Shown: in pieces, positions 6,053-63,930 of the stretch
How the letters are laid out: every line of letters begins with the position of its first letter
Position numbering within the stretch: position 1 is the stretch's first letter
From: Candidatus Poribacteria bacterium
GTDB lineage: Bacteria > Poribacteria > WGA-4E > WGA-3G
Length of the DNA stretch: 64,000 bases
NCBI GenBank assembly: GCA_965220065.1
Contig: OZ244804.1
Span: forward strand, 1,344,915-1,408,914
Reading direction: 5' to 3'
The notes under the pieces: generated by a model
What the model saw: the letters and a program-made list of their open reading frames with translations, nothing else
Databases searched by the model: none
Told to the model about the DNA's origin: nothing
Translations under genes and position numbers: made by a program

Positions 6053-6090
6053 TTTTAAATCCTCCTGGAATTGAAAGTTCAATTGTATGC

Positions 6091-6108
6091 TATAGTTTGG
6101 ACAAATCC
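6091..6108. promoter_or_regulatory. 18-bp motif TATAGTTTGGACAAATCC (copy 1), about 40 nt upstream of the VOC start. Candidate operator shared with the Rieske gene.
   Basis: An exact 18-mer copy occurs at 8164-8181. The core TTTGTCCAAA is a 10-bp near-palindrome. Confidence 0.35.
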
Positions 6109-6235
6109 TTGGAAATTTTAGGGGTGCAATGAAGTTGGAAAATCTTCGACAATGTGAATTTTCAACGAATTTCCGTTCAACCCAACCTACGAAAGAAAAG
6201 TCGAACTCATGTTAGTGTATAATGCAAGAACGACA

Positions 6236-11022: not shown

Positions 11023-11181
11023 TTGAGGGTTCGGGGCAATCACTTTGTGGTGGACCTTAGAAGAAATCCGGGTGTTTGAAATCCAACCCCGACACGTTTT
11101 TCATTGACAACTTCATGGAAGTTAACATATCATATCCGATGAGCGTTGACCCGTTGCTATCGTTTAAAAGGAGTCGTAGAA

Positions 11182-11985
11182 ATGTCGAAAGCCCTCTCCC
11201 TTGTGGCACATAACGATTTAGAGAGCCAAGTTGAGGCATTGGAAAGAGATGGGTATGTCTATTTCCCCAACGTGCTTGATGCTGATGAAATCGCTGAATT
11301 GCGTGCAACCATGGATCGATTAGAGGCGATCCCAGAATCTCACGATCGGGACGAAACGCCTCAAAATGGCGACGCATTCCTCCACAAGCTCATTAGCAAC
11401 TCGTTTAATCGAGACCCGTTGTATCTCCAATTCCTTGACAGATCCCCCGTTTTTGAAGTCGCTGAGGCGGCGCACGGCGAGGATTTCCATTGCATCGGCA
11501 TGCATTCGTGGCTGACGGGACCCGGACGCCCGGATCAGGGGTTACACTCGGATTGGTTGCCGATCCGTCTACCGGCAGATGTTCGTTCCGATCCACGCGT
11601 CAAAATCCCGATCTTCATCACCACCGCCCATTACTATCTCAATGATATGTATGAAGAATTGGGACCGACGAAGTTTGTGCCGGGCAGTCACCTCTCTGGG
11701 GGTTCCCCAAATGGAGCAACAGAATGGAATAACCGAGGAGAGGAGAGTATCTTGTGCAATGCGGGGGACGTCGTGCTATTCCGTAGTGAAGTCTGGCATC
11801 GTGGCTCTGCCAATACCAGTGACGAAGTCCGTTATCTCATGCAGGTACACTATGCGCAGCGGATGATTACACAGAAGTATCCACCCTATCTGAACAAATT
11901 TCAGTTCAATACATCGATTCTCGCCCAAGCAACCCCTCGACAGAAGCGGCTCATGGGCGACCATCGACCGAGTAATTACGATTAA
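11182..11985 (+). CDS. Phytanoyl-CoA dioxygenase (PhyH) family Fe(II)/2-oxoglutarate oxygenase, paralog 1
   Basis: The start was moved to the internal ATG (MSKALSLVAHN...), which has an AAGGAG RBS, by alignment with the paralog at 15220. About 80% aa identity to that paralog. Confidence 0.8.
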   Translation: MSKALSLVAHNDLESQVEALERDGYVYFPNVLDADEIAELRATMDRLEAIPESHDRDETPQNGDAFLHKLISNSFNRDPLYLQFLDRSPVFEVAEAAHGEDFHCIGMHSWLTGPGRPDQGLHSDWLPIRLPADVRSDPRVKIPIFITTAHYYLNDMYEELGPTKFVPGSHLSGGSPNGATEWNNRGEESILCNAGDVVLFRSEVWHRGSANTSDEVRYLMQVHYAQRMITQKYPPYLNKFQFNTSILAQATPRQKRLMGDHRPSNYD

Positions 11986-12985: not shown

Positions 12986-15028
12986 ATGAAAGTAAAAAGA
13001 ATGCTCCTTTTTACTTTAACGCTCCTAATAGTTTCGAGCGTCGGTATTCTTCCTGGGTTGGCGCAGTATGTCGCATATACCCAATTCAGTTTACCCGAGG
13101 GTGCCATCGCGCGTATCGGTAAAGGCAGTGTAGGAGCGGGAACATATTCTCCAGACGGTTCAACGTTTGCCGTAGGAAGCAGTATCGGTATATGGCTGTA
13201 TGATACCAAAACATTCCAAGAACTTGAGTTGATCAGGGGGCAGCGGAGTTGGTTCTCAAGCATAGCATTTAGTCCAGATGGTTCAACGCTTGCCACTGGA
13301 GGTGGGGATATGGATCGGACGGTGCGTTTGTGGGACGTTGCGACAGGTTCGATCAAAACCACACTCACCGGAGGGCATTGGGGCGGGATCTATAATATAG
13401 CGTTCAGTCCGGACGGTTCAACGCTTGCCAGTAGTGGGGGTAAGGGTATAGACGATACGGACGGAACCGCGTGTTTGTGGGACGTTTCAGCGGGCACCCT
13501 CAAATTCACACTCACCGGACATACGTATCATGTCAACATATCGCTCAGTCCGGACGGTTCAATGCTTGCCAGTGGGGATGGGTATAGGGCCGGAACGGTG
13601 CGTTTGTGGGATGTTTCAACGGGCACCCTCAAAGCGGAACTCACTGGGCACACGGAATATGTTTCAAGTGTATCGTTCAGTCCAGATGGCTCTACACTTG
13701 CCAGTGGGAGTGGGGATAACACAGTACGTTTGTGGGACGTTTCAACGGGCACCCTTAAATCCACACTCACCGAGCATGGATTCCTGGTCGGGCGTAGGTC
13801 CCAGGTCATCAGTGTATTGTTCAGTCCGGATGGCTCTACACTTGCCGGTGGGAATTGGGACGGTAGGATTCATTTATGGGACGTTGAGACGGGTGCTGTT
13901 AAATTTACACTCACCACGGGTAGGGCTTATAGTATAGCGTTCAGTCCAGATGGCACAATGCTTGCCAGTGGAAGTCAGGTGTGGGACGTTGCGACGGGCA
14001 CTCTTAAATCCAGACTCACCGGACATACGAGCGGTATCAATCGTATATCGTTTAGTCCGGCTGGTTCAACGCTTGTCTGCGGGCATGGAGGGAATACGAT
14101 TCGTTTGTGGGATGTTGCGACGGGCACTCTCAAATCCAGATTCATCGGACATACGGGTAGTGTATCGTTCCGCCCGGATGGCACAATGCTTGCCAGTAGA
14201 TATGAGGGTAACAAGATTCGTTTGTGGGACGTTACGACCGGTGCCGTCAAGGTGACGCTCACTGGGCATACGGACACAATCGATAGTGTATTGTTCAGTC
14301 CGGATGGTTCAACGCTTGCCAGTTGGAGTCCAGATGATAGGTTGCGTTTATGGGACGTTTCAGCGGGTGTACTCAAAGCGACACTCGACGGATATGGGGA
14401 TTGGAGTGGATGGGTATCGTTCAGTCCGGATGGCTCTACGTTTGTCACTGTGAGTCGGAGTTGGGACGGTCCGGTGCGTTTATGGGACGTTTCAACGGGT
14501 GCGGTCAAAGCGACACTCGAGGGGCATAGAGACCTCGTCGTAAGCGTATCGTTCAGTCCAGATGGCTCTATAATTGCCACTGGGAATGCTAATTCGTATG
14601 GCGGAACGGTGCGTTTATGGGACACTTCGACGGGTGCGGTCAAGGCGATACTCGCTGGACATACGACCGGGATCAGGAGTGTATTGTTCAGTCCAGATGG
14701 GTCTACACTCGCCAGTGGGAGTTCGGATCACACGATTCGTTTGTGGGATGTTTCAACGGGTGCCCTCAAATTCATACTCACTGGACATACAGGTGAAGTC
14801 GGGAGTGTGCTGTTCAGTCCGGATGGGGCTACGCTTATCAGTGGGAGTTCGGATCACACGATTCGTTTGTGGGATGTTTCAACGGGCACCCTCAAATTCA
14901 TACTCACCGGACATACAGGTGAAGTCAGGAGTGTATTGTTCAGTCCGGATGGGGCTATACTCGCCAGTGGGAGTTCGGACGGAACAGTCCTGTTGTGGGA
15001 CATCACGCCGAAAATCTCAGAACCGTAA
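12986..15028 (+). CDS. Secreted WD40-repeat protein with about 14 blades (two beta-propellers)
   Basis: Signal peptide MKVKRMLLFTLTLLIVSSVGILPGLA. Repeated 'FSPDGSTLASGS...VRLWDVSTGTLK' units. AGGAGA RBS, ATG at 12986. Confidence 0.8.
   Translation: MKVKRMLLFTLTLLIVSSVGILPGLAQYVAYTQFSLPEGAIARIGKGSVGAGTYSPDGSTFAVGSSIGIWLYDTKTFQELELIRGQRSWFSSIAFSPDGSTLATGGGDMDRTVRLWDVATGSIKTTLTGGHWGGIYNIAFSPDGSTLASSGGKGIDDTDGTACLWDVSAGTLKFTLTGHTYHVNISLSPDGSMLASGDGYRAGTVRLWDVSTGTLKAELTGHTEYVSSVSFSPDGSTLASGSGDNTVRLWDVSTGTLKSTLTEHGFLVGRRSQVISVLFSPDGSTLAGGNWDGRIHLWDVETGAVKFTLTTGRAYSIAFSPDGTMLASGSQVWDVATGTLKSRLTGHTSGINRISFSPAGSTLVCGHGGNTIRLWDVATGTLKSRFIGHTGSVSFRPDGTMLASRYEGNKIRLWDVTTGAVKVTLTGHTDTIDSVLFSPDGSTLASWSPDDRLRLWDVSAGVLKATLDGYGDWSGWVSFSPDGSTFVTVSRSWDGPVRLWDVSTGAVKATLEGHRDLVVSVSFSPDGSIIATGNANSYGGTVRLWDTSTGAVKAILAGHTTGIRSVLFSPDGSTLASGSSDHTIRLWDVSTGALKFILTGHTGEVGSVLFSPDGATLISGSSDHTIRLWDVSTGTLKFILTGHTGEVRSVLFSPDGAILASGSSDGTVLLWDITPKISEP
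13090..15000. repeat. Intragenic tandem ~126-bp DNA repeats encoding WD40 blades
   Basis: Recurrent 'ttcagtccggatgg(c/t)tc(t/a)ac(g/a)cttgccagtgg...gtgcgtttgtgggacgtt' units. The antisense ORFs in this span are artefacts of the repeat. Confidence 0.6.
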
Positions 15029-15095
15029 GCCTTACAGTGGATGTCAATTTACACACTCTGGGCACTTCCATCGGTAATATTTATTTTCCCCAGGT

Positions 15096-15125: not shown

Positions 15126-15219
15126 ATCGGTAAAAATTACCCGATTAAATTCTTAATCTTCATTAGGGGTGCGGCACTTTAGATGAACGATTTTCTATCG
15201 TCCGAAAGGAGTACTAAAA

Positions 15220-16023
15220 ATGGCGAAAGCTCTCTCACTGGTGGCACATAACGATTTAGAAAGCCGAGTTGAAGCACTCGAAAGGGATGGGTATGTCTAT
15301 TTCCCCAATGTGCTTGACGCTGAGGAAGTCGCCGAATTGCGAGCCACTATGGATCGGTTAGAAACGATCCCTGAATGTTTGGATCGACACCAAACACCTC
15401 AAAATGGCGGCGGATTCCTAAATAAAATCATTAACAACTCGTTTAATCGAGATCCGTTGTATCTCCAGTTCCTTGACAAATCACCGATTATTGAAGTTGC
15501 CGAAGCGACGCACGGCGAAGATTGTCATTGTATCGGTATGCAATCGTGGATAACAGGACCGGGACGTCCGGATCAGGGGTTACATACCGATTGGCTACCA
15601 ATCAGTCTACCGGCAGATGTTCGTTCCGATCCACGCGTCAAAGTTCCAATCTTCATCACCACCGCGCATTACTATCTCAACGATATGTATGAGGAATTGG
15701 GACCGACGAAGTTCGTGCCGGGTAGCCATTATTCCGGATGTTCTCCAAACGGACAAACCGAGTGGAAAGGCAGGACGGAAGAGAGTATCTTATGCAATGC
15801 TGGGGATGTGGTGCTCTTCCGTAGTGAAGTCTGGCATCGGGGTTCTGCGAATACGAGTGCTGATACCCGTTATCTCTTGCAGGTGCACTATGCCATGCGG
15901 ATGATTACACAGAAGTATCCGCCCTATCTGAATAAGTTTCAGTTCGATGCATCGATTCTCGCCCAAGTAAACCCTCAGCAGAGACGGCTCCTCGGCGACC
16001 ATCGACCGAGTAACTATGATTAA
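15220..16023 (+). CDS. Phytanoyl-CoA dioxygenase (PhyH) family oxygenase, paralog 2
   Basis: MAKALSLVAHNDLESRVEALERDGYVYFPNVLDAEE... Near-identical architecture to 11182-11985. Confidence 0.8.
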   Translation: MAKALSLVAHNDLESRVEALERDGYVYFPNVLDAEEVAELRATMDRLETIPECLDRHQTPQNGGGFLNKIINNSFNRDPLYLQFLDKSPIIEVAEATHGEDCHCIGMQSWITGPGRPDQGLHTDWLPISLPADVRSDPRVKVPIFITTAHYYLNDMYEELGPTKFVPGSHYSGCSPNGQTEWKGRTEESILCNAGDVVLFRSEVWHRGSANTSADTRYLLQVHYAMRMITQKYPPYLNKFQFDASILAQVNPQQRRLLGDHRPSNYD

Positions 16024-17242: not shown

Positions 17243-19315
17243 GTGTGCCTATGGCACTTGGGATTTATAAGAAAGTCCCTTCAAAACAGATCCGAAATGC
17301 CGCACACGAAACCGATCTTATCCCCATCAAGACCGTCCTCATCCGTCAGTTGGCGGTCTATAGCAATTGGACTTCTTCTCATCCCCATCAATTGTTATTG
17401 GATTACCTATATTGAACTGGTACAATATTCCGCACAGCCTACCATCGTCTCGCTTATTTTCACGGTCGTTTTCAATGTGCTTGTGCTGATCGGACTTAAC
17501 CAAGTATTCAAGCGGTTCCTACCTCGGTTCGCGCTATCTCAAGGTGAACTCCTTGTCATCTATGTCATGCTATCGGTCGCGTCCGCCACTGCCGGGCATA
17601 GCATGATGGAGATTTTGGTCTCCACATTGGGGCACGCTTTCTGGTTCGCAACACCAGAGAACGATTGGAAAGACCTATTTTGGCGGTATATCCCGAGCTG
17701 GCTTGCCGTGTCGGACAAGGGTGTGCTTTCGGGCTACTACGAGGGAGATTCTACGCTGTACACAAAGCAACATCTATTGGGTTGGCTAACACCTGTGCTG
17801 AATTGGTTCGCCTTTCTTTTCGTGATGCTGTTTGTTATGGTTTGTATCACTGTCATCGTACGAAGACCGTGGACGGAAGATGAGAAACTGGCATATCCGA
17901 TCATCCAACTTCCGGCTCGGATGACGAGCGACGGTTTCTTTACGAATCGGCTGATGTGGATCGGTTTTGGGCTTGTGGCAGCTTTCGATGTCGTTAATGG
18001 TCTCCATCACGTTTTCCCTGCGATACCCTCCGTCTACGAGAAAGCATACCGTTTCAGATTCACAGAAAAACCTTTCTCCGCAATGGAGTGGTTGCGATTA
18101 GGGATTTATCCCTTTGTTTTAGGCATCGGATTCCTAATTCCGTTGGATCTGTTATTTTCAACGTGGTTTTTCTTTTGGGTGTGGAAGGGACAACAGGTCA
18201 TTGGAAGCATGATGGGTTTAGAAGGGACGGGGTATCCTTACGTCAACTATCAGGGATTTGGCGCGTATATGGGCATCTTCCTAATTGCCTTGTGGAGGGG
18301 TCGGGGTTACCTTCAAGGTTTGCTGGAAGCGAAAACCGACTTTCTTAATGACAATAGTCCACAATTTGTAGCCCATAACGAAGTGGAGGGCGGATCTACG
18401 GGGGGTCCCGCGAATGCACACACCCGCCAGAACGAACCGCAAGGTATAATTAAAAAGCCGATGTCACCCTTGATCCTTGTCCTCGCATTGATTGCTGGTG
18501 TCGCGTTTCTAACCTTTTTCTGTTTAAGAGCGGGTATGTCCCTCTGGGCGATCCTCGTCTTTTTTGGACTCTATTTCGCTTTCTCAACGGCGGTTTCTCG
18601 GATGCGCGCTGAACTCGGATCACCAATGCACGACTTACACTATACCGGACCCGAACGGGTCATGATTGCAGCTGTAGGCACGCGTCCGCTGGGACCGAAT
18701 AATTTGTCGATGTTCTCTTTCTTCTGGTTTTTTACACGCACCTTCGATTCGCATCCGATGCCGCATCAACTTGAAGGGTTCAAACTCGCCTCAACATCGG
18801 GAATCCGGAGCCGTTTTATGCTATTTGCAATCCTTATTGCGCTGTGCGTCGGCATCCTCTCGCAATTTTGGGCACTTATATCCATACCTTACCGACTCGG
18901 TGCTTTACATGAGATGTCCCGCGTGCCAATCATATACGGGTCTGAACCGTGGACGCAGCTGCAAAGATGGTTAGCACATCCACTTGCGCCCGACTATTGG
19001 GCGTTGGGATTTACGGGAATGGGTTTACTGTTCGCGCTGTTCCTTATGTTGATGCGAATGAAGTTTTTTTGGTTCCCTTTTCATCCCGCAGCGTATGCCG
19101 CCGTGTGCGGGAGTTGGGCGGTCAACTACATCTGGTTTAGCTTGGGGATCGTGTGGGTACTGAAATTGCTTCTGTTGAAGTATGGCGGAAGAAATGCCCA
19201 TCGAAAGGCGATGCCGTTCTTTCTGGGATTGATATTGGGGCAATTTACCGTTGGGAGTCTATGGACAATATTGGGCATGGTGTTTAATATACCTGCTTAT
19301 GGAATTTGGCCGTAG
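17243..19315 (+). CDS. Large polytopic membrane protein (about 690 aa), hypothetical. The start is uncertain; an alternative ATG lies at 17297.
   Basis: More than 12 hydrophobic segments. No known motif recognised. Confidence 0.45.
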   Translation: MCLWHLGFIRKSLQNRSEMPHTKPILSPSRPSSSVSWRSIAIGLLLIPINCYWITYIELVQYSAQPTIVSLIFTVVFNVLVLIGLNQVFKRFLPRFALSQGELLVIYVMLSVASATAGHSMMEILVSTLGHAFWFATPENDWKDLFWRYIPSWLAVSDKGVLSGYYEGDSTLYTKQHLLGWLTPVLNWFAFLFVMLFVMVCITVIVRRPWTEDEKLAYPIIQLPARMTSDGFFTNRLMWIGFGLVAAFDVVNGLHHVFPAIPSVYEKAYRFRFTEKPFSAMEWLRLGIYPFVLGIGFLIPLDLLFSTWFFFWVWKGQQVIGSMMGLEGTGYPYVNYQGFGAYMGIFLIALWRGRGYLQGLLEAKTDFLNDNSPQFVAHNEVEGGSTGGPANAHTRQNEPQGIIKKPMSPLILVLALIAGVAFLTFFCLRAGMSLWAILVFFGLYFAFSTAVSRMRAELGSPMHDLHYTGPERVMIAAVGTRPLGPNNLSMFSFFWFFTRTFDSHPMPHQLEGFKLASTSGIRSRFMLFAILIALCVGILSQFWALISIPYRLGALHEMSRVPIIYGSEPWTQLQRWLAHPLAPDYWALGFTGMGLLFALFLMLMRMKFFWFPFHPAAYAAVCGSWAVNYIWFSLGIVWVLKLLLLKYGGRNAHRKAMPFFLGLILGQFTVGSLWTILGMVFNIPAYGIWP

Positions 19316-19379: not shown

Positions 19380-20507
19380 ATGCAGATTCAAAAAATTCAG
19401 GCGTTTCCACTTGCCTACCCAGAACCACATTACAAGGGTATTGAACGTTACATCACGCTCGCTCGCGTGGAGAGCGACGACGGTCTCGTGGGCTGGGGGG
19501 AGTGTATCTCACAATTCCGAGAAGCGACACTCGCAACAAAGATAATTATTGATGAAGGATTTGCGCCGATGCTTACCGGTGAAGATGCTCTGGATGTGGA
19601 ACGGCACTGGCATAAAATGCTCGATCACATCTGGTGGTATGGTCCCGAAGGCATCGCCGCATTCGCTGTCAGTGCTGTGGACATGGCGTTGTGGGACTTA
19701 AAAGGCAAGGCACTCGGTCTGCCTGTCTGTCAACTCCTTGGGGGGCAACTCCATGACAAGATCGTTGCAATGGCATCCATTATCTTTGATATGGAAGACT
19801 TGGACTGGACGCTCAACGAATTTCGGTGGTTGCGAGAGCAAAACTACCGCGTCGTCAAGGGCGGTTGGGGGATGCGACCAGAGGCGGTATTCGGTCTTGA
19901 TCGCCAGCGTGATATTGAGATGATTCGTCGCGTGCGTGAGGTCATTGGAGACGAACTTGAGTTTGTCATTGATACACCCGGTCACCGTCGCATTTGGGAT
20001 GTCCCGACAGCGATTCAACGTTTCCGAGATCTTGAACCCTATCGGCTCAAATGGATTGAGCAACCCCTACCACCTCAAAACTTTGACGCGTATGCCCAAC
20101 TGCGGTCAGCAGTTATGACGCCCATCGGGACAGGTGAAGATGAATGGGATGTCGAAAGTTACAAACGGCTTATCCAGTCGGGTGGCGTCGATATCGTACA
20201 AATTGATCCGGGGCGTTGTCATGGACTCACCGGCAGCCGACACGTTATCAAACTCGTTGAGGCGGAGAACCTGCTGTTCAGTGCGCATTCGTGGAGCAGT
20301 GCTTTAAACACGGCGGCGAGTCTGCACATGCTCGCGAGTTCACCGCATGCGGATTGTACGGATTTCAAGCCTCACGAATCCCCGATGCAGCATGAATTGG
20401 TCAGTGATCCGTGGGAACAAGAGGACGGATATGTCACCATCCGAGACGTCCCCGGACTGGGTGTCACAGTGCGAGAAGATGTTGTAGAGAAATACGTGTT
20501 CGGATAA
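19380..20507 (+). CDS. Enolase-superfamily enzyme (mandelate racemase / muconate lactonizing enzyme family; sugar-acid dehydratase-like)
   Basis: '...VGWGECIS...' N-terminal capping domain and a C-terminal barrel with metal-ligand Asp/Glu pattern. AAGGAGAG RBS. Confidence 0.8.
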   Translation: MQIQKIQAFPLAYPEPHYKGIERYITLARVESDDGLVGWGECISQFREATLATKIIIDEGFAPMLTGEDALDVERHWHKMLDHIWWYGPEGIAAFAVSAVDMALWDLKGKALGLPVCQLLGGQLHDKIVAMASIIFDMEDLDWTLNEFRWLREQNYRVVKGGWGMRPEAVFGLDRQRDIEMIRRVREVIGDELEFVIDTPGHRRIWDVPTAIQRFRDLEPYRLKWIEQPLPPQNFDAYAQLRSAVMTPIGTGEDEWDVESYKRLIQSGGVDIVQIDPGRCHGLTGSRHVIKLVEAENLLFSAHSWSSALNTAASLHMLASSPHADCTDFKPHESPMQHELVSDPWEQEDGYVTIRDVPGLGVTVREDVVEKYVFG

Positions 20508-20642
20508 CCGAACCACAAGACAAATTAAAAGATCGAAATTTCCGTCTACTCAAGAATACGCGCAGCTCGTAATGAAATGGAGAGGGGATATACGGAAAAG
20601 AACGTTAAATACGAAACCCAACTGACCGAACCGCAAGGAAAA

Positions 20643-21575
20643 TTAAAAATTTGCCTTCACGACACCTTTGATGTAGCTTCCGTCTCCACCCGTTGCTTCT
20701 TTGAGGAGTGCTGGATAATCTTGCAACGGGACGATGTGCGTCACAAGCGGTCTTAGGTCGATGTGGCCACGCTCGAGGAGCCGAATCGCTGGCGGAAACG
20801 TATCCCGTATCTTCGCGCCCGGGGACGAACTCACCAAGTTAAACCCGCCGCCGTGCCACTCAGAACCGTTAATTGTGACTTCCTCTCGAACCCAACCGAA
20901 AAGATTGATATGTCCGCCTCTGCGAACAATCTTCGTCGCGAGATTTAACCCTTGCGGTTTGCCAGAACAGTCGAATATCACGTCAATTGTGCGTCCCTTC
21001 AGTTCTGATACCAGTTCGGCGGCATCGACTTCCGTTGGATTATACGCGAATTGCGCCCCAAGCGATTTCGCCAATTTCAGTCGATCTTCGACGATATCAA
21101 TAGCGATAAGGTCATGCGTGTAGAATTGGCTCAGTGCTTGGATGAACATAAGTCCCATAAAACCGCACCCGATGACTGCAACGTTGTCGGCGGGTAGCAA
21201 AGGTGCAGTGTCCAGCCCCGTTACAACGCATGAAACCGGTTCAACGATCCAATATTCGTCGGCGAGGTCTGATTCTGGGAGTACATACATACGGTCGGTT
21301 GTGCAATTCTTAATACCGTCGAATCCCAACCCCGCGCCTGTAACACGCATCCCTTCCTCAAAATCCCGGACACCACGCCCGACTTTTGTGATGTAGCCAA
21401 CACCTTCGTGCCCCGGTGGTGCCGTGCCACCGTCACGAAAGGTCGCTAAATCCCATGCACAGATCCCACAGGCGGCGCTCTGAATCTGCACTTCGCCAGC
21501 CTGCGGATCGGATACATCAATATCAATAATCTCGACTCCACCGTTTTCTCCATACTTAATCGTTTGTGTTTTCAT
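20643..21575 (-). CDS. Zinc-dependent medium-chain alcohol dehydrogenase (MDR) family
   Basis: 'GHEGVGYITKVGRGV' Zn motif. Rossmann fold 'VAVIGCGFMGLMFIQAL'. Start set at MKTQTIKYG (ATG 21575). Confidence 0.75.
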   Translation of the reverse strand: MKTQTIKYGENGGVEIIDIDVSDPQAGEVQIQSAACGICAWDLATFRDGGTAPPGHEGVGYITKVGRGVRDFEEGMRVTGAGLGFDGIKNCTTDRMYVLPESDLADEYWIVEPVSCVVTGLDTAPLLPADNVAVIGCGFMGLMFIQALSQFYTHDLIAIDIVEDRLKLAKSLGAQFAYNPTEVDAAELVSELKGRTIDVIFDCSGKPQGLNLATKIVRRGGHINLFGWVREEVTINGSEWHGGGFNLVSSSPGAKIRDTFPPAIRLLERGHIDLRPLVTHIVPLQDYPALLKEATGGDGSYIKGVVKANF

Positions 21576-39702: not shown

Positions 39703-39790
39703 GTAGCCTGCAACATCGGCGCAGGCAGATTTCGGGAACGCCTGTCAAAATCCAAGCGTCCGTTGTTCCTCCGCAAGGTAAAATTAAAAA
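39703..39790 (+). repeat. REP-like element family 1, degenerate copy (hairpin GCCTGCAACATCGGCGCAGGC plus tail) abutting the cbpA-like start
   Basis: Shares the palindrome and a 'cgttgtt...ccgcaagg...aatta' tail with the copies at 48281, 52290 and 52410. Confidence 0.4.
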
Positions 39791-48276: not shown

Positions 48277-48280
48277 TTTT

Positions 48281-48362
48281 TGATAATTCGCAAGGCGTTA
48301 AATGAAGGGGTTAGAGCATTGACGTGCTTATGTGCAGAGTCGCCTGCGCCGTTGTTGCAGGC
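48281..48362. repeat. REP-like element family 1 copy (tail then hairpin GCCTGCGCCGTTGTTGCAGGC), abutting the DUF58 start codon
   Basis: Reverse complement 'gcctgcaacaacggcgcaggc...ccccttcatttaacgccttgcgaattat' matches the 52290-52510 units. Confidence 0.5.
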
Positions 48363-48497
48363 TTGCGTCTCCAGCTATAAGGTATTTGACACAATTATCG
48401 GAAATAGGTTTATATGAGTTGGATTTATTCTAAAGGTGATTTAACTTTCAGTGGTAAGTCGCGACTGGGAGGTGGTTCCTACAAGGATGCTACCGTG

Positions 48498-49325
48498 TTA
48501 GCGCAAACGGTCAATAGTCTTTCGATAGCGGGCTTCCATCTCGGATCCTTGAGACTGTAAGTACACCTGTTCGGACCGGCGCGCCGCCTCGGTTGAAGGG
48601 AGAACTGGGATATCAATGTCTGCTGTACTGATTTGGTCGTTGCCCCATTTGTAGGTGACAATTTCACCTTTACTGATGATGAGGTTCATCCCGACATTCG
48701 CCTCTACGATCGGCACACCATTTTCACGCGCTCTGGCGAGCACGGCGTGATTCTGTGACTTGCCCTTTGAACCGTACGACGGAATTAAGAGGAATTGGGC
48801 ACCGTCTAAAACCAGTGTGCGCGCTATCAGCGGATTCCACCTGTCGTTGCAGATTAAAATGCCGGCACGTCCGAAAGGCGTATCAAACGCACGAATCGTT
48901 TCGCCGATGCAATTGAAGTTCCACGACGGATGCGTCCCTTCAGCGAACTGGGTTTTGTGATAGGTGCCGCAGATGTCTCCACTGGTATCAATAAACACGG
49001 CGGAATTATAGACGGAAGAGGTCCCACACCGTTCAGCGAACCCGAAACAGAGACAGGTTTTGAGTTGACGTGCCAATCGACGGAATCGACGGATATACGC
49101 GCCATCAATCGGCTCTGCAATTTCAAGCATCGCCTCTGGTGTGGCTTTGCCTTCAATGACATCCATCACGACGTAGCCCTCCAAAACACCCTCTGTTGCC
49201 AAAATCAACTGTGGAGCGTCCTTAGCGGCTTCAACGAAGAAAGCCTCCAGTTTCTCAGCGTTGGAGGCTTTATCCCATTTGGTAGGTTTCAACGAAATTG
49301 CGGAGACCTTGATTGATTGGTACAT
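48498..49325 (-). CDS. Carbon-nitrogen hydrolase family protein
   Basis: 'LILATEG' (Glu) and 'ILICNDRW' (Cys) catalytic regions. Confidence 0.65.
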   Translation of the reverse strand: MYQSIKVSAISLKPTKWDKASNAEKLEAFFVEAAKDAPQLILATEGVLEGYVVMDVIEGKATPEAMLEIAEPIDGAYIRRFRRLARQLKTCLCFGFAERCGTSSVYNSAVFIDTSGDICGTYHKTQFAEGTHPSWNFNCIGETIRAFDTPFGRAGILICNDRWNPLIARTLVLDGAQFLLIPSYGSKGKSQNHAVLARARENGVPIVEANVGMNLIISKGEIVTYKWGNDQISTADIDIPVLPSTEAARRSEQVYLQSQGSEMEARYRKTIDRLR

Positions 49326-49376
49326 AAAATTAGAAATGTCTGTGAGTCAGATTGCCCCATACGGGTCAATGTAACA

Positions 49377-49619
49377 TGTAGGTTGGGTTGAACGGAATTG
49401 AAAGTTCTATCTTGCATTCCAAACGCCTCTCAAATATGATTCCCTGTTGTATACTATCAAGGACGCAGTGAAACCCAACTTCAGACCGTTAGATCTTAAG
49501 AAGCCACACAGGAAAAACGTTGGGTTTCACTCATTATCTCTGACACAGTAGATATATAACTCAAAGACTATTTTTTTAGATGCTGACGTTTCGTTCCGAT
49601 CCGTTCAACCCAACCTACG
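49377..49619. mobile_element. MITE-like non-autonomous element, 243 bp, with perfect 19-bp terminal inverted repeats and a nested internal inverted repeat
   Basis: Left TIR TGTAGGTTGGGTTGAACGG (49377-49395). Right TIR CCGTTCAACCCAACCTACG (49601-49619). Internal IR AGTGAAACCCAAC (49462-49474) / GTTGGGTTTCACT (49519-49531). A solo TIR-like copy lies at 6150-6190. Confidence 0.45.
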
Positions 49620-49680
49620 ATAGATTCCTGTAGGCGAGGTTTGAAACCTCCCCAGTGGGAAAATATGGAATAGATTAGAC

Positions 49681-50787
49681 TTATTTCGGATAGGCGGTGT
49701 CCAGAGAGAGAATCGCGTAACTGGTTGCTAGGACAGGTAGTGCCTCCATCCAACGACTCTCATCGTTTACCCAGAACCCATCGGGTTTCTGGACCCCGAT
49801 CAGTTTCTCTGCGAGTTCTCGGTACCAATCGTGCGAGATGCCTTTTGCGTCCATAAGAACGGGTTCACCGTAGAGTCGTAACGCCTTTGCCATCGTGTGA
49901 TAGTTGTAGTATAGACCCTGTGCGCCCATGCCGTAGTTTTCTTCCGTTGTGAAATTTTGTTTGATCCACTCGACAGCCGCCTGGACGCGTTCATCGTTCT
50001 TATCTACATTGGCATAGATGAAACTCAACAACCCGGCATACGTCATACTGGCATAGGAGCGCGGGCTTCCCGCGGCATCCGTGCCGGCTTTGCTCTCACC
50101 GTCAGGCGAATAGATAAATCCACCATCGTTGCCTGCCCACGACTGATCATTGCTCTCGCTCCGATTCTGTGTGCGTTCCAGAAACTTAATCGCCTTGTCC
50201 CAAACTTCTTGGTCGTCGGAACCGCTCTCTTTTAGTGCTTGGATGGCAAGGTTCAGGTTGGACAGATCGTGCACGGTTTCACGGCTTCCGTAACCGATCC
50301 CACCGTAATAGACGCTCTCCTCATCTGTGACCTGCAGACTTTTCAGGAAACCTTGTGCCCTTTCAATAATAGATGCATATTCCGAGTTACCGGTTGAGGA
50401 AAGTGCCATTACCGAGATAGCGGTATTGTAATTCGGAAGTGCGGGTTGCATCTCGATATTATAGATCGCACCGTTGGGTTGTTGCATCCCAATCAACTGC
50501 TGAAGTCCCTTCTGGATAAACGGATGTTCTGCCTCCGAGTATTTGTTCTGAGGATGCCGCAAAAAAGCGGTGAGTGCGAGAGCCGTTATTCCCGGATGAT
50601 TGGCAAATAGTCCATCTTCGGCTTGTTGTCCCTTCAACCACACCAACCCACGGTCAATGCTTGCAATGACCTGTTCATTTAGTTCGTGATATTCCGATGC
50701 GCCTGTCTCATGATGTGCAGTTATACCGTTCTGTACGACCGCAAATGTGAGGAATAACACCAGTATCAATCCATGTTGCATTTTCAT
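49681..50787 (-). CDS. Secreted alpha/alpha-toroid protein (prenyltransferase / squalene-oxidase-repeat-like)
   Basis: Signal peptide MKMQHGLILVLFLTFAVV. Repeated 'G..W' / 'QxxDG' toroid-like segments. Confidence 0.45.
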   Translation of the reverse strand: MKMQHGLILVLFLTFAVVQNGITAHHETGASEYHELNEQVIASIDRGLVWLKGQQAEDGLFANHPGITALALTAFLRHPQNKYSEAEHPFIQKGLQQLIGMQQPNGAIYNIEMQPALPNYNTAISVMALSSTGNSEYASIIERAQGFLKSLQVTDEESVYYGGIGYGSRETVHDLSNLNLAIQALKESGSDDQEVWDKAIKFLERTQNRSESNDQSWAGNDGGFIYSPDGESKAGTDAAGSPRSYASMTYAGLLSFIYANVDKNDERVQAAVEWIKQNFTTEENYGMGAQGLYYNYHTMAKALRLYGEPVLMDAKGISHDWYRELAEKLIGVQKPDGFWVNDESRWMEALPVLATSYAILSLDTAYPK

Positions 50788-51049
50788 TCTGTCTCTCCCT
50801 TTCGGCAAGTTGTTAGTACAGTGTTAGCAAATCCGATGCCAATGCTGAAAGCCTATTTTCGCGTGAATTCTCGGAATTCAGCGGAAGATTGCGTCAAAAA
50901 CTGAACGCCACTGTCCATAATCTGAACAATTTTTAATTATTCCTTGCGGTTCGGTCGGTTGGGTTTGGGCTTTTATCGGTCTCTCCGTATATCTGGGGGA
51001 AACACCCCGATGAATGCCACACGCGCATTCAGCGTTGATTCGCAAAAAC

Positions 51050-51068
51050 CCTGCGCCGTTGTTGCAGG
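51050..51068. repeat. REP-like family 1 hairpin (CCTGCGCCGTTGTTGCAGG), truncated copy
   Basis: Flanked by 'ttgattcgcaaaaac' and by the GAATGCCACACGCGCATTC palindrome at 51010-51028. Confidence 0.45.
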
Positions 51069-51174
51069 CTACGTTTTTTGATGCTATCCCAAGAGGGTCC
51101 CTGTGTTAAAGGAAAACCTCTTAACTGATAACTGACAACTGGTAACGGTTTTGAAACTCACGAGCAAAACGCGT

Positions 51175-52209: not shown

Positions 52210-52289
52210 TTTTTAAACGATTAGCCTCCATGTTTTTTAAGTTATCAAATCTGGTTACCGTCGCTCCAGATTTCGGTGCTTTTCTCTTA

Positions 52290-52510
52290 AGAGTGAATGA
52301 TGGTAGCCTGCAACAACGGCGCAGGCGGTCAGTACCAAAAAATCGTTGTTGAACCAAACCAGTCATTTTACGCCTTGCGAATTATTGTGATTGCAGCATT
52401 CACGAAAAATGTATGATGGTAGCCTGCAACAACGGCGCAGGCGGTCAGTACGAAAAAACCGTTGTTAGACCAACCCCTTCATTCTACGCTTTGCGAATTA
52501 TTAAAAAAAT
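52290..52510. repeat. Tandem duplication (2 units of ~116 bp) of REP-like family 1 element, each containing the hairpin GCCTGCAACAACGGCGCAGGC
   Basis: Unit 1 is about 52290-52405 and unit 2 about 52406-52510. Hairpins at 52306-52326 and 52422-52442. Shared tail '...cattttacgccttgcgaattatt'. Confidence 0.55.
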
Positions 52511-53412: not shown

Positions 53413-54492
53413 TTATGCGTACTGTTCTAATACGTTTCGGTTGATATCAATACCTAATCCGGGTGCCTGGGGAACGTCAACGTATCCATCAACGGCATTT
53501 ATCGGTTGCTGTGCCAACGCCGTACGGAGACGGTTCTCGGTCATATCGAATTCCAACAGCGAAGGGATCGGGTTGAGTGCTTGGGGTGCATCTGGAAGTG
53601 TAGCTTGCCAGTGCAGCGTCGCCGCGAGGCGGATACTACCGCCCCACATGTGGGGCAATACCCGAACATAGTTCGCACTCGCCATAGCCGCGATTTTTCG
53701 GCACTCCGTAAAACCGCCTGCAATGCTCAGATCGGGTTGCACAATATCCAATCCCCGTTCCTGTAGCAGGTCTCGGAACGCCCAACGTCCCTTCAGCATC
53801 TCGCCACCAGCAATTCTCACCTTCAGTGCGTGTCGAATCTCCCGATAGCCTGTCACATCGTCACTCGTAATCGGTTCCTCATACCAGAAGAGGTCGGAGT
53901 CCAGAAGTTTCTGTCCGACATCAATCGCAGTCCCGACATCGTAGCCACAATTGGCGTCGACAGCGAAGAGGGTATCGTCCCCAATGGCGCGTCGAACCGC
54001 GGCAACGTTCTTCACATCGTAAGCCTCACCGAAACCGACTTTCATCTTGACAGCGGGGAATCCTGCATCGACGTAGCCTTTCGCTTCGTCCATCAACGCT
54101 TGAGTTATGTCGGGTTTGTCTTTCTTGAAGAGTCCACTGGCGTAAGCCGGGATTTTTGATCGAAACGCGCCACCGAGGAGTTGATAGATCGGCATATCAA
54201 GTGCCTTGCCCATGATGTCCCAGAGTGCGATGTCTATCCCGCTCAGCGCGCCGATATCACCGCGCATCGCCTCCCAAATCCGTTCCGTTTCAAAAGGCGA
54301 TTGTCCGATCAGGTGTGCTTCAACTGCTGAGGGGGACGGAACGCTCACACCTTCACCCCAGCCGGTAATGCCAGCATCTGTGCGAATTTCGACAACGATG
54401 GCGGTTCGCGCGTTCGTCCAACCGCGTGAGTTCGCGAAGGGTTCAATGAGTGGATAGCGTAAGTTGTATGTTTTAACGTCGGTGATTTTCAT
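53413..54492 (-). CDS. Enolase-superfamily enzyme (MR/MLE family)
   Basis: 'MKITDVKTYNLRYPLIEPFANSRGWTNARTAIVVEIRTDAGITGWGEG'. Confidence 0.8.
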   Translation of the reverse strand: MKITDVKTYNLRYPLIEPFANSRGWTNARTAIVVEIRTDAGITGWGEGVSVPSPSAVEAHLIGQSPFETERIWEAMRGDIGALSGIDIALWDIMGKALDMPIYQLLGGAFRSKIPAYASGLFKKDKPDITQALMDEAKGYVDAGFPAVKMKVGFGEAYDVKNVAAVRRAIGDDTLFAVDANCGYDVGTAIDVGQKLLDSDLFWYEEPITSDDVTGYREIRHALKVRIAGGEMLKGRWAFRDLLQERGLDIVQPDLSIAGGFTECRKIAAMASANYVRVLPHMWGGSIRLAATLHWQATLPDAPQALNPIPSLLEFDMTENRLRTALAQQPINAVDGYVDVPQAPGLGIDINRNVLEQYA

Positions 54493-58618: not shown

Positions 58619-58647
58619 CAGGATTCTCCATAATTAACGTTTTCGGT

Positions 58648-60072
58648 TCAAATATCCAACCTAAAGAATTTCAGAAACGCCACGGTTGTTAACGCTGCCG
58701 CAAAGAAGCAGAGCAGCAAAACATCCACTATAGACCGGCGCAACGTTTCACCTAAGGAAGTTACGACCAAATTCGGCGGTGGCGCGATTTTTTCCTCACT
58801 TGACTCAGATGGATTCATGCGAACTGCTATTTGCATTATCTGTGCAAAGGGATCATCTGAGATATGAGAGAAATAATCTGTATTGAGTTGTGCATAGTAG
58901 GATTCACCGGTTTGGAAGTAGGTATTCCTTTTGAGTTTTCCTGTCTGCGTTAAGTTCATGACGAGAAAGGTTAAGGAAGACGTGGGTGTGATTCGGGAAA
59001 GCGTCTCGCCCACGGATTCTTGCCTCAATTTTTCACGTTGATAGGCTCTATCAATCTTGTTCGCTTGATCCTCAAATTTCAGCCGATATTCCTTCTCAAT
59101 AGGTTCGCGGAGTTCTTGTAAAGTATCCTCGCCATCTGTTCTTATCTCAAGGCGGCCTCCTGTGGCATCCATAATTTTTTTTGTGATCTTCTCATCCTTC
59201 TCTGCATTGAGATTGTTGCGGACTGCTGTCTTTTCCATATAGACACTCTGTACTGTTCGAGTGGGTGCGATGAGTTTCGCGGTAACAAAACCAGCCCGTG
59301 GTGCAATCAACACAGCAAATACCCAGAGCGTAAAAGCGACGATGAGTGCCGTTTTGGAATCGTCCAGATAGGTGGAGATCACCGTTCCTATCGCAAAAAA
59401 CACCGCAATATAGAGCATTGAAGCTCCTGTTAGGCTGAGTACCCGTGGAAAAACGTCGGGCTCACCCAATGGGAACCCTTGCCAGACAAGCACGAGTAAA
59501 CCGAACAGGAATGAGACTAAGAACGGGATGACGAAGACGATGTATCCGCCGATCAACTTACTCCATAGAAAAAGATCGCGCGGTAACGCATTTGCTAAGG
59601 TAATTCGCAGTGTCCCGGCTTCTCTTTCCCCTGCAACGGCGTCAAACGTAAACAGGAGGGCGAGCAAACTGAAAACGGTGCTGACGACAAACAGAAAGTC
59701 AAGATGTCCTAAAGCATAAGAAAGTGGTGCTTCCGCCAATGTTGTTGAACCCCGTCTGACACCATTACGGGTCATTCCAAGATAGGTAGGGAGTGCTTCC
59801 TCTAACCCGTTCGCGAAGACGCTCAACGGCGTGGGGTTGAGATATAGTTTGGAAACCTCCTTATCTGGATCCTGGGCATTTGGCGGATCCTCTTTCGCTT
59901 TAGCATTTGCGCGTTTAACTGCCTCCTGATAGTCTACCTGATTCTGACGATAGTGTCGATAATTGATAGAAAGCGTGAGCGGTATGAGCAGGACACACAT
60001 CAAAAGGAGCGCGACGAACCGGACGCTCAAAATGTGATGCATCATTTCTTTCTGAATTAAGGTCATTAACAT
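58648..60072 (-). CDS. Permease-like polytopic membrane protein (ABC-2-permease-like N-terminus, coiled-coil region, C-terminal TM), paralog A
   Basis: Start set at MLMTLIQKEMMHH by homology with paralog B. GGAGA RBS. The conserved upstream 110 bp is shared with 63840-63940. Confidence 0.5.
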   Translation of the reverse strand: MLMTLIQKEMMHHILSVRFVALLLMCVLLIPLTLSINYRHYRQNQVDYQEAVKRANAKAKEDPPNAQDPDKEVSKLYLNPTPLSVFANGLEEALPTYLGMTRNGVRRGSTTLAEAPLSYALGHLDFLFVVSTVFSLLALLFTFDAVAGEREAGTLRITLANALPRDLFLWSKLIGGYIVFVIPFLVSFLFGLLVLVWQGFPLGEPDVFPRVLSLTGASMLYIAVFFAIGTVISTYLDDSKTALIVAFTLWVFAVLIAPRAGFVTAKLIAPTRTVQSVYMEKTAVRNNLNAEKDEKITKKIMDATGGRLEIRTDGEDTLQELREPIEKEYRLKFEDQANKIDRAYQREKLRQESVGETLSRITPTSSLTFLVMNLTQTGKLKRNTYFQTGESYYAQLNTDYFSHISDDPFAQIMQIAVRMNPSESSEEKIAPPPNLVVTSLGETLRRSIVDVLLLCFFAAALTTVAFLKFFRLDI

Positions 60073-60415
60073 TAAGGTGTCTCCGTTTCCAAATCGGGAT
60101 ATGATACGCTTCAACTAATAAAGACACAATTTTAGAGGAAAAACTTGCATAATCTGAAAAAATCAGAGGAATTAAGATTTTAAGGTAAATGGGACTTATA
60201 CGATGGTTTAAAATTGTCTGATACACTGATATTATGAAAACATTAACCCTTTCTGAAAAGAGACAACTGCTATTAGTGGATTATAGCCAATTTCTATTAG
60301 CAAGTTTCCATAACTTCACGCACATCTACTCTGCAACACATACCCGGGATGGAATCATAATCAACTTAATCGGTTTCTGCGACTAGAACACCTTCTCGTC
60401 TGCGAATTCTAATAC

Positions 60416-62293: not shown

Positions 62294-62408
62294 TTTTGTC
62301 CTCCTATTGGATTTTCCAAACAAAAAGCCTCAATAAACCGAAGTAGAATAAAATAGAGTTTGAAGGCAATTAAATTCCCTCATAATTCCAAACTCTGACG
62401 TTTTCCGC

Positions 62409-63839
62409 TCAAATATCTGTGCGGAAGAATTTCAGAAATGCCACGGTTGTTAGCGCAATTGCGAAGAAACAGAGTAGTATCGCGTCCACAACCGATCGAC
62501 GGAATGTCTCTCCTAAGGGCGTTATCTCTAAAGGGGAGGGTTGTGTGATTTTGACACCCGCATGGTGATGTCCCTTATAGGTATGGTCTGAAATTTTGCT
62601 GAACACCTCCGTGTCAAGTCTATCCCAGTAGCGATTTCCTGCTTGCAAGTAGTTGCTTCTTTTTCCCTTTCCGGTTTGTGTCAAGTTCGTCGCGAGATAG
62701 ATTAAAGAAGATGTGGGTGTCATTCGGGAGAGCGTCTCACCGATTTGCTCTTGTCGTTCTGTTTCACGTTTGTAATCGCGGTCGAGTTTATCAGAGTGGT
62801 TTTGGAATTTTAAGCGATATTCCTCTTCAAGCGGTGCCATGTGCGCATCGATTTTTTCCGCGTTTTTTCCACCCGGCATGATGAACGTGATCCTGCGTCC
62901 CATCTCATCCGTTATCTCGTCCCATTCGAGCTGAGACATTATTTTCTTTTTTTCCTTTTCGAGGGTTGTATTGAAATCTTCTCGCATCGCTGTTTTCTCC
63001 ATATAGACGCTCTGCGGCGTTCGTGTCGGGGCAATGAGTTTGGCTGCCAGAAACCCAACGCGTGGTGTAATCAGTACGGCAAACACCCAAACAGTAAAGG
63101 CAACGATGAGTGCCGTCTTGGCACTATCGAGGTAGATGGAAATCACCGTCCCTATCGCGAAAAACACGGCGATATAAAGTAAGGAGACGAGGGTTAAACT
63201 GAGTACTCGTGGAAAAATGTCGGACTCACCGAGCGGAAACCCTTGCCAAACGATTAAGAGTAAACCGAAGATAAACGACACCAAGAAGGGAACAACAAAC
63301 ACAAGGTATCCGCCGATCAACTTGCTCCATAGGAATACGTCGCGCGGGAGGGCGTTCGCTAAAGTAATCCGCAACGTCCCTGCTTCTCTTTCCCCGGCAA
63401 CGGCATCGAACGTAAACAGCAACGCAAGCAGACTAAAAACTGTCCCGACCACAAAGAGAAAATCGAGATGCCCCAGCAGATAGGAAAGTGGTGAGGCAAT
63501 TAAAGCATCGGGTCCCTGTGTAATCCCATTGCGTGTTATACCCAGATAACTCGGGAGCACGTTTTCGAGTCCGTTTGCGAAAACGCTCAAAGGTGTCGGT
63601 TTGAGAAAGAGTTTGGAAACTTCCTGTTCCGGTTTAGGGGGTGAGTTCGGATTCACTTCCGCCTCTTCAAGGTTTGCCCGTTTAATGGCTTCTTGATAGT
63701 CCACTAAATTTTGGCGATAATTGCCGTAATTGATATGCAAGGTAAGCGGAACAAGCAACAGACACATCAAAAGGAGCGCGACGAACCGGACGCTGAGAAT
63801 ATGATGCATCATTTCTTTCTGAATTAAGGTCATTAACAT
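62409..63839 (-). CDS. Permease-like membrane protein, paralog B (about 70% aa identity to paralog A)
   Basis: The N-terminus, TM core and C-terminal TM align with 58648-60072. Confidence 0.5.
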   Translation of the reverse strand: MLMTLIQKEMMHHILSVRFVALLLMCLLLVPLTLHINYGNYRQNLVDYQEAIKRANLEEAEVNPNSPPKPEQEVSKLFLKPTPLSVFANGLENVLPSYLGITRNGITQGPDALIASPLSYLLGHLDFLFVVGTVFSLLALLFTFDAVAGEREAGTLRITLANALPRDVFLWSKLIGGYLVFVVPFLVSFIFGLLLIVWQGFPLGESDIFPRVLSLTLVSLLYIAVFFAIGTVISIYLDSAKTALIVAFTVWVFAVLITPRVGFLAAKLIAPTRTPQSVYMEKTAMREDFNTTLEKEKKKIMSQLEWDEITDEMGRRITFIMPGGKNAEKIDAHMAPLEEEYRLKFQNHSDKLDRDYKRETERQEQIGETLSRMTPTSSLIYLATNLTQTGKGKRSNYLQAGNRYWDRLDTEVFSKISDHTYKGHHHAGVKITQPSPLEITPLGETFRRSVVDAILLCFFAIALTTVAFLKFFRTDI

Positions 63840-63930
63840 TAAGGTGTCTCCACTTCCAAATCGGGATATGATACGCTTCAGTTAATAAAGACACAATTTT
63901 GAGGGCAAAACTTGCATAATCTGAAAAATA

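Follow-up and report, generated by a model that had tools for sequence, protein, structure and literature searches.

A probable dimer of inverted, GTAG-tagged REP units with long inserts in an intergenic spacer of Candidatus Poribacteria

Within a stretch of 64,000 nucleotides from a Candidatus Poribacteria genome (contig OZ244804.1, positions 1,344,915 to 1,408,914; here called the window), a short non-coding element is present, which very probably represents a dimer of two inverted repetitive extragenic palindromic (REP) units. It spans positions 49378-49618 and carries the tetranucleotide GTAG at both outer ends, an arrangement called 'HH' in the nomenclature of Di Nocera and similar to REP doublets forming hairpins (REPINs) and bacterial interspersed mosaic elements (BIMEs). 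The evidence for this comes from the anatomy of the repeat, its dispersal, its linkage to genes of REP-associated tyrosine transposases (RAYTs), domesticated enzymes by which REPs are spread through bacterial genomes, compensatory changes in the stem, the lack of target-site duplications and the presence or absence of the element at an orthologous site. This kind of element is already known; new is the long-loop form found in Poribacteria, in which each hairpin holds an insert of about 70 nt.

An earlier reading made from the sequence alone (the sequence-only reading) had described a miniature inverted-repeat transposable element (MITE) bounded by perfect 19-bp terminal inverted repeats. A perfect 19-bp inverted repeat, GTAGGTTGGGTTGAACGGA, is indeed present, but at 49378-49396 and 49600-49618, one base inside the ends given there: the left arm at 49377-49395, TGTAGGTTGGGTTGAACGG, and the minus-strand read of 49601-49619, CGTAGGTTGGGTTGAACGG, show one mismatch with the outermost base being unpaired, and the arms pair one base further in. 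The same 19 pairs form a 19-pair stem in the computed folds of the window doublet. Allowing up to 3 mismatches, the 19-mer occurs three times in the window in comparison to 0.01 occurrences expected from shuffled sequences. The segment between the arms is non-coding, as had been stated, and the doublet takes up the greater part of the 355 bp that separate two genes on the minus strand, encoding a CN-hydrolase and a SQHop_cyclase-like protein (Table 1).

What had been taken for a terminus, GTAGGTTGGGTTGAACGG, makes up the 5' half of a REP hairpin tagged with GTAG (GTAG and GTTGGGTT, closed by AACCCAAC). Each unit starts with the 5' GTAG followed by the 8-nt stem half GTTGGGTT and the motif GAACGG (together the head), continues with an insert of about 70 nt and ends with (G)AGTGA and the stem half AACCCAAC (the tail). 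GTAG opens all three heads of the window as well as every head in the loci fetched for comparison. The 19-bp 'terminal inverted repeat' is two such heads standing face to face. The nested inverted repeat reported earlier is exact and 13 bp long (AGTGAAACCCAAC and GTTGGGTTTCACT), but it is no independent second repeat: it consists of the two tails, the 3' halves of the REP hairpins. Thus, two REP-like units lie in inverted orientation around a 39-nt spacer, as in a doublet. In an alignment of units, the first unit of the window falls into interior family A, and the second groups near family B.

The head is widely dispersed. A scan of species-representative genomes with the 18-mer yielded at least 117 8-kb tiles with an exact match, and the termini are therefore not a single occurrence, in line with the related copies elsewhere that the sequence-only reading had expected. 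At least 87 of these listed tiles are from metagenome-assembled genomes (MAGs) of Candidatus Poribacteria, the rest being mostly cyanobacteria (Nostoc, Calothrix, Okeania, Stigonema, and others) together with a Caldilineaceae MAG. Among the matches listed, the genes flanking doublets and single units are unrelated between loci, and the copies are intergenic and scattered. As a rough density, about 10 further exact-head sites per Mb are present in the Poribacteria tiles and 2 sites in the 64-kb window, whose proteins other than the CN-hydrolase reach up to 85% identity to Poribacteria loci. The CN-hydrolase has orthologs at graded levels of identity, part of which bear the name Candidatus Poribacteria.

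Two forms of the unit exist. In Poribacteria, the tail starts 80-100 nt past the start of the head in 89 of 108 heads, with a mode of 88-92 nt, and only 3 are compact. These long units measure about 102 nt and contain an insert of about 70-75 nt, which is nearly constant in length and variable in sequence; the inserts form more than 20 clusters at 50% identity and yet align nearly without gaps. Outside Poribacteria, AGTGAAACCCAAC follows 3-8 nt after the head, which results in GTAG, GTTGGGTT, a loop of 11-15 nt and AACCCAAC, a hairpin of about 31 nt. This compact form accounts for 28 of 32 heads outside Poribacteria (cyanobacteria and Chloroflexota).

Roughly every second long unit (44 heads) is part of a doublet, 223-255 bp in length, whose GTAG tags face outward and whose tails face inward, and 40 heads belong to single units. 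The doublet is composed of two different interior families, A and B, which are unrelated to each other, and at least 10 MAGs contain this A+B combination. Between the two tails, a linker of 33-43 nt is present in 13 of 14 aligned A+B doublets (26 nt in L042), and it is partly conserved. A small co-varying hairpin suspected within the linker from some copies was inconsistent, by eye, across the 14 doublets. In 8 of the 14 (L002, L011, L025, L041, L055, L059, L073, and L099) a run of A residues (TTAGAAAAAAC-like) is seen outside the B head, at a distance of 13-16 nt. In L038 (3085-3110), such a run also stands between the B head and the start codon of the RAYT gene, and the window copy is devoid of it. 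From this A-run, the mobile unit may extend past the head on the B side.

A hairpin preceded by GTAG on its 5' side marks REPs, and RAYT genes were therefore searched for. With the E. coli RayT as tblastn query, L038 (Poribacteria) and L060 (Caldilineaceae) each revealed a gene directly adjoining the 18-mer. Their products score 199 and 206 bits, respectively, on the NCBIfam model NF047646 'REP-associated tyrosine transposase' (cutoff 80), and both pass the Pfam model Y1_Tnp (PF01797) with 27-28 bits (cutoff 23). The L038 protein is about 46% identical, by tblastn, to E. coli TnpAREP and matches the TnpAREP structure PDB 4ER8 with E=1.3e-39, where HLHCIW aligns on HMHCIW and YIHYNPVKHG on YIYINPVKHG, the HUH and catalytic tyrosine motifs. 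The L060 gene is bracketed by compact REPs. A REPtron layout, with long units or doublets at most 150 nt from the RAYT gene, is present in five Poribacteria genomes (L038 and L203-L206); here, repeats flank the gene on either side in L203-L206 and lie upstream only in L038.

The linkage was further assessed in 80 metagenomic loci harboring relatives of the L038 RAYT, by scoring the head GTAGGTTGGGTT with at most 1 mismatch within 200 bp of the gene. Such a head is present in 19 of 20 loci whose RAYT is at least 60% identical to L038, in 13 of 19 at 55-59%, in 6 of 31 at 50-54% and in 1 of 10 below 50% identity. In the usual layout, a plus-strand head is located 40-100 bp upstream of the RAYT gene and a minus-strand head about 30-40 bp downstream, and the background away from these genes is 0.08 heads per kb. 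RAYTs at least 71% identical to L038 take in every match named Poribacteria, and the tier of 64-70% comprises mostly cyanobacteria plus an Anaerolineae MAG, i.e., the same groups that carry the head.

The stem itself is supported by compensatory changes. Beside more distant RAYTs, stem variants occur as GTCGGGTT/AACCCGAC, GGTGGATT/AATCCACC, GATGGGTG/CACCCATC, GTTGGGCA/TGCCCAAC, GGTGCGTT/AACGCACC and others, amounting to at least 10 compensatory variants in compact relatives, and GTAG is invariant ahead of every one. For the long form, L204 is informative: two long units by its RAYT gene have the head GTCGGGTT with the tail AACCCGAC 89 nt downstream, and the partner unit of the doublet keeps GTTGGGTT/AACCCAAC. 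This change keeps the pairing within the unit and breaks that between the units, as expected if the REP hairpin of each unit is the selected structure. Further candidates for compensatory head and tail variants in long units turned out to be tandem compact REPs, so that the L204 pair alone is genuine. Since heads and tails are almost invariant, covariation is scarce in the long form. In an RNAalifold analysis of 91 units and of five sub-families, the 8-bp head-tail stem GTTGGGTT/AACCCAAC was the sole consensus helix, and a conserved structure was absent from the interiors of about 70 nt, both in any family and overall. The motifs GAACGG and (G)AGTGA, which adjoin the stem, are strictly conserved in compact and long forms, which makes them candidates for contacts with the enzyme.

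With respect to mobility, the sequence-only reading had proposed to look for target-site duplications. In none of 14 doublets was one found, direct repeats at the junctions being 2 bp long at most. This absence argues against a DDE-type MITE and fits the single-strand chemistry of HUH/Y1 enzymes. The orthologous loci agree in their gene order, GFO_IDH_MocA, SQHop-like, CN_hydrolase, DUF58 and Macro, but differ in the spacer before the CN-hydrolase gene. This spacer measures 355 bp with the doublet in the window, and the doublet is absent from all six relatives: L207 (CN-hydrolase 99% identical to that of the window; spacer 177 bp), L199 (96%; 166 bp), L208 (94%; 224 bp), L200 (93%; 14 bp), L201 (91%; 369 bp) and L202 (88%; 30 bp). 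Other repeat families occupy this spacer in some relatives. These six relatives indicate that the window doublet is a lineage-specific, recent gain in a spacer of fast turnover. Except for the last 20 nt or so ahead of the start codon, the spacers of the relatives are unalignable, and insertion boundary and excision footprint are thus not definable.

Independently of the doublet, the spacers on both sides of the CN-hydrolase gene differ wholly in length and content among the relatives of 88-99% identity (window 48277-49680 vs. L199-L202, L207, and L208). Upstream they measure 14-369 bp, and downstream 30-513 bp where the DUF58 neighbor is kept, and repeat insertions are the chief difference between these otherwise syntenic genomes. 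Within the window spacer, 11 nt outside the B head, a compact GTAG-tagged palindrome of another kind is located (GTAGGCGAGGTTTGAAACCTCCCC; general form GTAGGCGAGGTTTGAAACCTC(G/C)CC). At the same site, L199 holds two tandem 52-nt copies of it (L199 1380-1490), each ending in TATCGTA(T/G). From these ends it follows that the window doublet starts exactly at the GTAG closing that other repeat.

A third copy of the terminus at 6 kb had been regarded as a solo terminus. A head is present there on the minus strand, and a 20-mer (6171-6190) is shared with the left arm of the 49-kb element. However, the copy is more than a solo terminus: the interior that follows the head has its best alignment to the A-type unit at 49 kb (local alignment score 73.5 vs. 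39.6 +/- 5.6 for shuffled sequences). Furthermore, the 14-mer GGAATTGAAAGTTC, which matches the start of the A interior at 49394-49407, is found inverted at 6068-6081, beside the ribosome-binding site of the downstream gene. We read this copy as a probably decayed and rearranged A-type unit that has lost its tail.

For TnpAREP of E. coli, Stenotrophomonas, and Marinomonas, it has been reported that the enzyme binds the folded single strand via GTAG and the foot of the stem, cuts at a nearby dinucleotide (CT) and rejoins the strands, by which REPs and doublets spread (PMC8266576, PMC6006769). By analogy, the single-stranded GTAG tag and the 8-bp foot stem of the Poribacteria units would be recognized by a RAYT/TnpAREP, an HUH/Y1 enzyme related to the TnpA of IS200. 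Judged from the other Poribacteria, the cognate RAYT of the window element would have its gene at another genomic site, with these repeats on its flanks. It would cleave and rejoin single strands beside the hairpin, whereby the doublet would be copied to new intergenic sites in a manner that leaves no target-site duplication. The published TnpAREP biochemistry makes it plausible that the enzyme tolerates the long insert. Mobilization in trans, as the sequence-only reading had proposed for a non-autonomous element, is in agreement with the dispersed copies beside unrelated genes and with the lack of the doublet in the relatives at their orthologous site, an enzyme encoded elsewhere being the most plausible source.

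Several observations weigh against the assignment as a REP dimer. The units of 102 and 100 nt are far larger than the 20-40 nt of classical REPs, and the longest loop in the survey of PMC3733652 is 27 bp. The pairing of head and tail across the insert depends on one independent compensatory event, the one in L204, and the support for this stem in the long form is accordingly real but thin. Thermodynamically, the window doublet favors the pairing of head with head (19 bp) and of tail with tail (13 bp). The A and B interiors are not complementary, so that the arms do not pair over their whole length, unlike those of a simple REPIN hairpin. Finally, a tblastn search of the 64-kb window found no Y1/RAYT transposase, in agreement with the earlier statement that no transposase is present there; other transposase families were not searched exhaustively.

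The explanation given by the sequence-only reading, a classical MITE, would be a deletion derivative of an insertion sequence (IS), moved via its 19-bp terminal inverted repeats by the DDE transposase of that IS under formation of target-site duplications. A perfect 19-bp inverted repeat bounding a short non-coding segment would fit, as would the dispersal of the family and the filled and empty states of an orthologous site. On the contrary, the 14 doublets are devoid of target-site duplications, one-headed single units and doublets are similarly frequent (40 vs. 44 heads) and the conserved ends, starting with GTAG, form a hairpin with a co-varying internal partner. An IS with matching terminal inverted repeats, which had been suggested as the source, was not seen among the neighbors of the repeat in the at least 117 listed loci, a search that was not genome-wide. 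In the same loci no transposase-like neighbor recurs. The sole gene recurrently flanked by the repeat is that of a RAYT. The ends are the GTAG-tagged feet of two inverted REP hairpins, whose partner protein would be a RAYT and not an IS transposase with matching ends. A MITE is thus highly improbable. The same superfamily of enzymes and the same logic of single-strand hairpins would be involved in a palindrome-associated element (PATE) derived from IS200/IS605 and moved by an IS200-type TnpA instead of a RAYT, and both RAYTs pass Pfam Y1_Tnp. However, the adjacent genes reach 199-206 bits on the RAYT equivalog, the IS200 model is matched by the L060 protein alone with 21 bits vs. a cutoff of 55, the 5' GTAG tag is a REP signature, and no IS200/TnpB genes were seen beside the repeats listed, which makes a PATE exceedingly improbable.

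Somewhat different is the idea of a structured non-coding or regulatory RNA, e.g., an mRNA stabilizer or a terminator within an operon, with the two inverted repeats as its helices. Compared with shuffled sequences, the segment has a much more stable fold (z = -6.2 as RNA and -4.7 as DNA), it is located between two co-directional genes, several changes confined to the tail preserve G-T/G-U pairing, and E. coli REPs affect mRNA stability and termination (PMC3733652). The low folding energy, however, arises from the presence of the two inverted repeats. Rfam revealed no family match at the gathering threshold in the element (only a tRNA in the whole window), and a relaxed search of 49250-49750 returned one miRNA match of 22.5 bits vs. 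a cutoff of 99. The interiors lack a conserved structure, the orientation toward the nearest genes differs among the few doublets compared (window, L011, and L025), and neither a terminator nor a promoter above chance was found, one sigma-70-like match being at chance level. The sequence-only reading had named a structured RNA conserved in unrelated genomes as the finding that would speak against a mobile element; the repeat does occur in cyanobacteria and Chloroflexota, but as a REP and not as an RNA gene, and this refuting case does not apply. An RNA is therefore quite improbable as the primary explanation, and it could be a secondary, exapted role. A resemblance to attC sites of integrons has the least in its favor. 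The 7-nt cores GTTGGGT and ACCCAAC fit GTTRRRY and RYYYAAC, which we take to be the degenerate attC core consensus. The elements, however, lie in both orientations between unrelated, mostly housekeeping-type genes in the absence of cassette arrays, an integrase is not among the recurrent neighbors in the matches listed, and the invariant GTAG together with the RAYT linkage accounts for the conservation. The probability of attC-like sites is therefore close to nil.

Having preferred the REP dimer, it can be placed among known systems. Di Nocera et al. (2013; PMC3733652) described GTAG REPs in Cyanobacteria, Chloroflexi, and bacteria of the Planctomycetes-Verrucomicrobia-Chlamydiae group, including GTAG-outside 'HH' dimers with conserved spacers of 20-100 bp and heterodimers. 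Like these, the Poribacteria repeat displays a 5' GTAG at the foot of an 8-bp stem, is intergenic and dispersed, and frequently forms HH dimers, and as in the heterodimers, units with different loops are joined in one doublet. In contrast to the loops of 2-15 nt (maximum 27 bp) described there, the stem halves are here about 80 nt apart, including GAACGG and AGTGA, and Poribacteria are outside the phyla covered by that survey. The cyanobacterial large-loop family GTAG-15 (PMC3733652) is probably the closest one, a likeness by description in which sequence identity is not confirmed.

With REPIN-RAYT systems (Bertels and Rainey, 2011; PMC5581495) and REPtrons (Ton-Hoang, 2012; PMC6006769) the element has in common the inverted REP pair, here the putative replicating unit, and one RAYT gene flanked by its cognate repeats, again without target-site duplication. 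As in REPIN-RAYT systems, the copies have diverged within and between genomes, which suggests a long persistence. REPIN arms, however, are near-complementary throughout and form one long hairpin, whereas here the heads (19 bp) and the tails (13 bp) alone pair. Furthermore, the RAYT clade and the REP head are common to three phyla, while the systems in PMC5581495 and PMC6006769 are mostly from Proteobacteria and vertical inheritance is stressed. Similar to the BIMEs of E. coli, the mosaics of y and z REPs, the units alternate in orientation and have conserved linkers, and the RAYT matches TnpAREP 4ER8. In contrast, E. coli REPs measure 29-37 nt with a bulge in the stem and the BIME-1 linker contains a site for the integration host factor, whereas the Poribacteria linker is known from sequence alone. 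With MITEs of DDE-type IS, such as cyanobacterial Nezha and the Correia elements of Neisseria, it shares the size of about 240 bp, the terminal inverted repeats, the non-coding nature and the dispersal; unlike them, it has no target-site duplication, no parent IS that was found, GTAG-hairpin ends and many single half-units. Literature searches with the repeat sequences returned unrelated primer matches only, and searches for repeats and transposases of Poribacteria returned nothing relevant.

REP and REPIN-RAYT systems are among the most abundant bacterial repeats and have been studied almost only in Proteobacteria. Here, a well-supported REP-RAYT system is present in an uncultivated phylum of sponge symbionts and is tied to the same head in cyanobacteria and Chloroflexota. 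In this phylum, the form whose hairpin accommodates about 70 nt is lineage-wide. This bears on the question which features of a REP are read by the transposase as well as on the movement of such systems between phyla, and will be an aid in annotating Poribacteria MAGs. Such systems are usually described as vertically inherited; the identical 18-nt head together with RAYTs of 64-70% identity in Poribacteria, Cyanobacteria, and Chloroflexota could reflect a horizontal transfer of the whole REP-RAYT system. Due to these and other repeats, the intergenic spacers of Poribacteria turn over fast between close relatives. The window element is an ordinary selfish or domesticated repeat, for which an effect on the neighboring genes is not demonstrated.

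A tentative idea, which we consider rather doubtful, is that the REP hairpin of Poribacteria has turned into a carrier, where a module of about 70-75 nt with fixed length and free sequence sits in the loop of almost all units and is copied along by the RAYT. If the length constraint is functional, this would be the first REP family with cargo, and the recognition by TnpAREP would need the GTAG foot alone. The insert might then be a protein-binding or DNA-bending segment, a promoter or 5'-untranslated region (5'-UTR) module, or a spacer for the action of the enzyme on the dimer.

Table 1. Positions of the doublet, its neighboring genes and further repeats in the window.
Feature	Position	Strand	Remarks
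REP unit A, 102 nt	49378-49479	+	head GTAG+GTTGGGTT+GAACGG 49378-49395; 71-nt variable insert; tail AGTGA+AACCCAAC 49467-49479
Linker between the two tails, 39 nt	49480-49518	no strand	spacer of the GTAG-outside ('HH') REP dimer
REP unit B, 100 nt	49519-49618	-	head 49601-49618; 69-nt insert; tail 49519-49531
CN-hydrolase gene	48498-49325	-	one neighbor of the 355-bp spacer
SQHop_cyclase-like gene	49681-50808	-	other neighbor of the 355-bp spacer
Compact GTAG-tagged palindrome, GTAGGCGAGGTTTGAAACCTCCCC	49630-49653	+	11 nt outside the B head
Probable decayed REP remnant	6068-6190	-	head 6173-6190; A-type interior with 5-nt insertion; no recognizable tail
GTAGCCTGCAACAACGGCGCAGGC family copies	39703-39726, 52303-52326, 52419-52442	+	
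GTAGCCTGCAACAACGGCGCAGGC family copies	48341-48363, 51050-51072	-	
GTAGCCTGCAACAACGGCGCAGGC family, larger tandem copies	52289-52386, 52405-52502		
Repeat of about 65 nt	18393-18456, 20587-20653, 50927-50993; possibly 19680-19744 / 54170-54234		also just before the CN-hydrolase ATG in L201, L207, and L208

Besides the doublet, further repeats were noted. A second family of GTAG-headed palindromes, GTAGCCTGCAACAACGGCGCAGGC, with a 6-bp stem GCCTGC/GCAGGC, has five intergenic copies in the window, and in L207 and L208 the orthologous spacer at the CN-hydrolase gene is filled by related sequence. In appearance, this is a further REP family, and the window holds more copies of it than of the family of the doublet. 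Additional GTAG-tagged palindrome families are present in Poribacteria loci (L023, L099, and L102; L079 and L083; L020, L056, and L091), among them GTAGGTTCGGTTTGCAACCGAAC, GTAGGGAACAACGATCGTTGTTCCCTAC, and GTAGGTCGGGCA. According to these, a Poribacteria genome would hold more than one REP family and possibly more than one RAYT. When the window was scanned for other compact GTAG hairpins whose stems are perfect over at least 7 bp, the matches were few and unrelated, and imperfect ones such as that at 49630-49653 escaped the scan.

Another dispersed repeat of about 65 nt ends in CCGAACCGCAAGG followed by an A/T-rich stretch (e.g., AATTAAAAA) and contains GGTTGGGTT, either by coincidence or by relationship. 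It abuts a start codon at 18393-18456 as well as in L201, L207, and L208, and lies about 120 nt upstream of one in the copy at 50927-50993; it may represent a mobile module with a 5'-UTR or a ribosome-binding site.

Within a coding region at about 13150-15040, a long array of diverged direct repeats of about 126 nt (42 codons) is located, which, judged from the period, probably encodes a WD40-type repeat protein. Poribacteria are reported to possess eukaryote-like repeat proteins (PMC3909097). Diverged duplicated segments of 71-85% identity are found at 58637-60161 vs. 62398-63928 (about 3.8 kb apart) and at 11154-11507 vs. 15192-15545 (about 4.0 kb apart), and both pairs are consistent with tandem paralogous genes.

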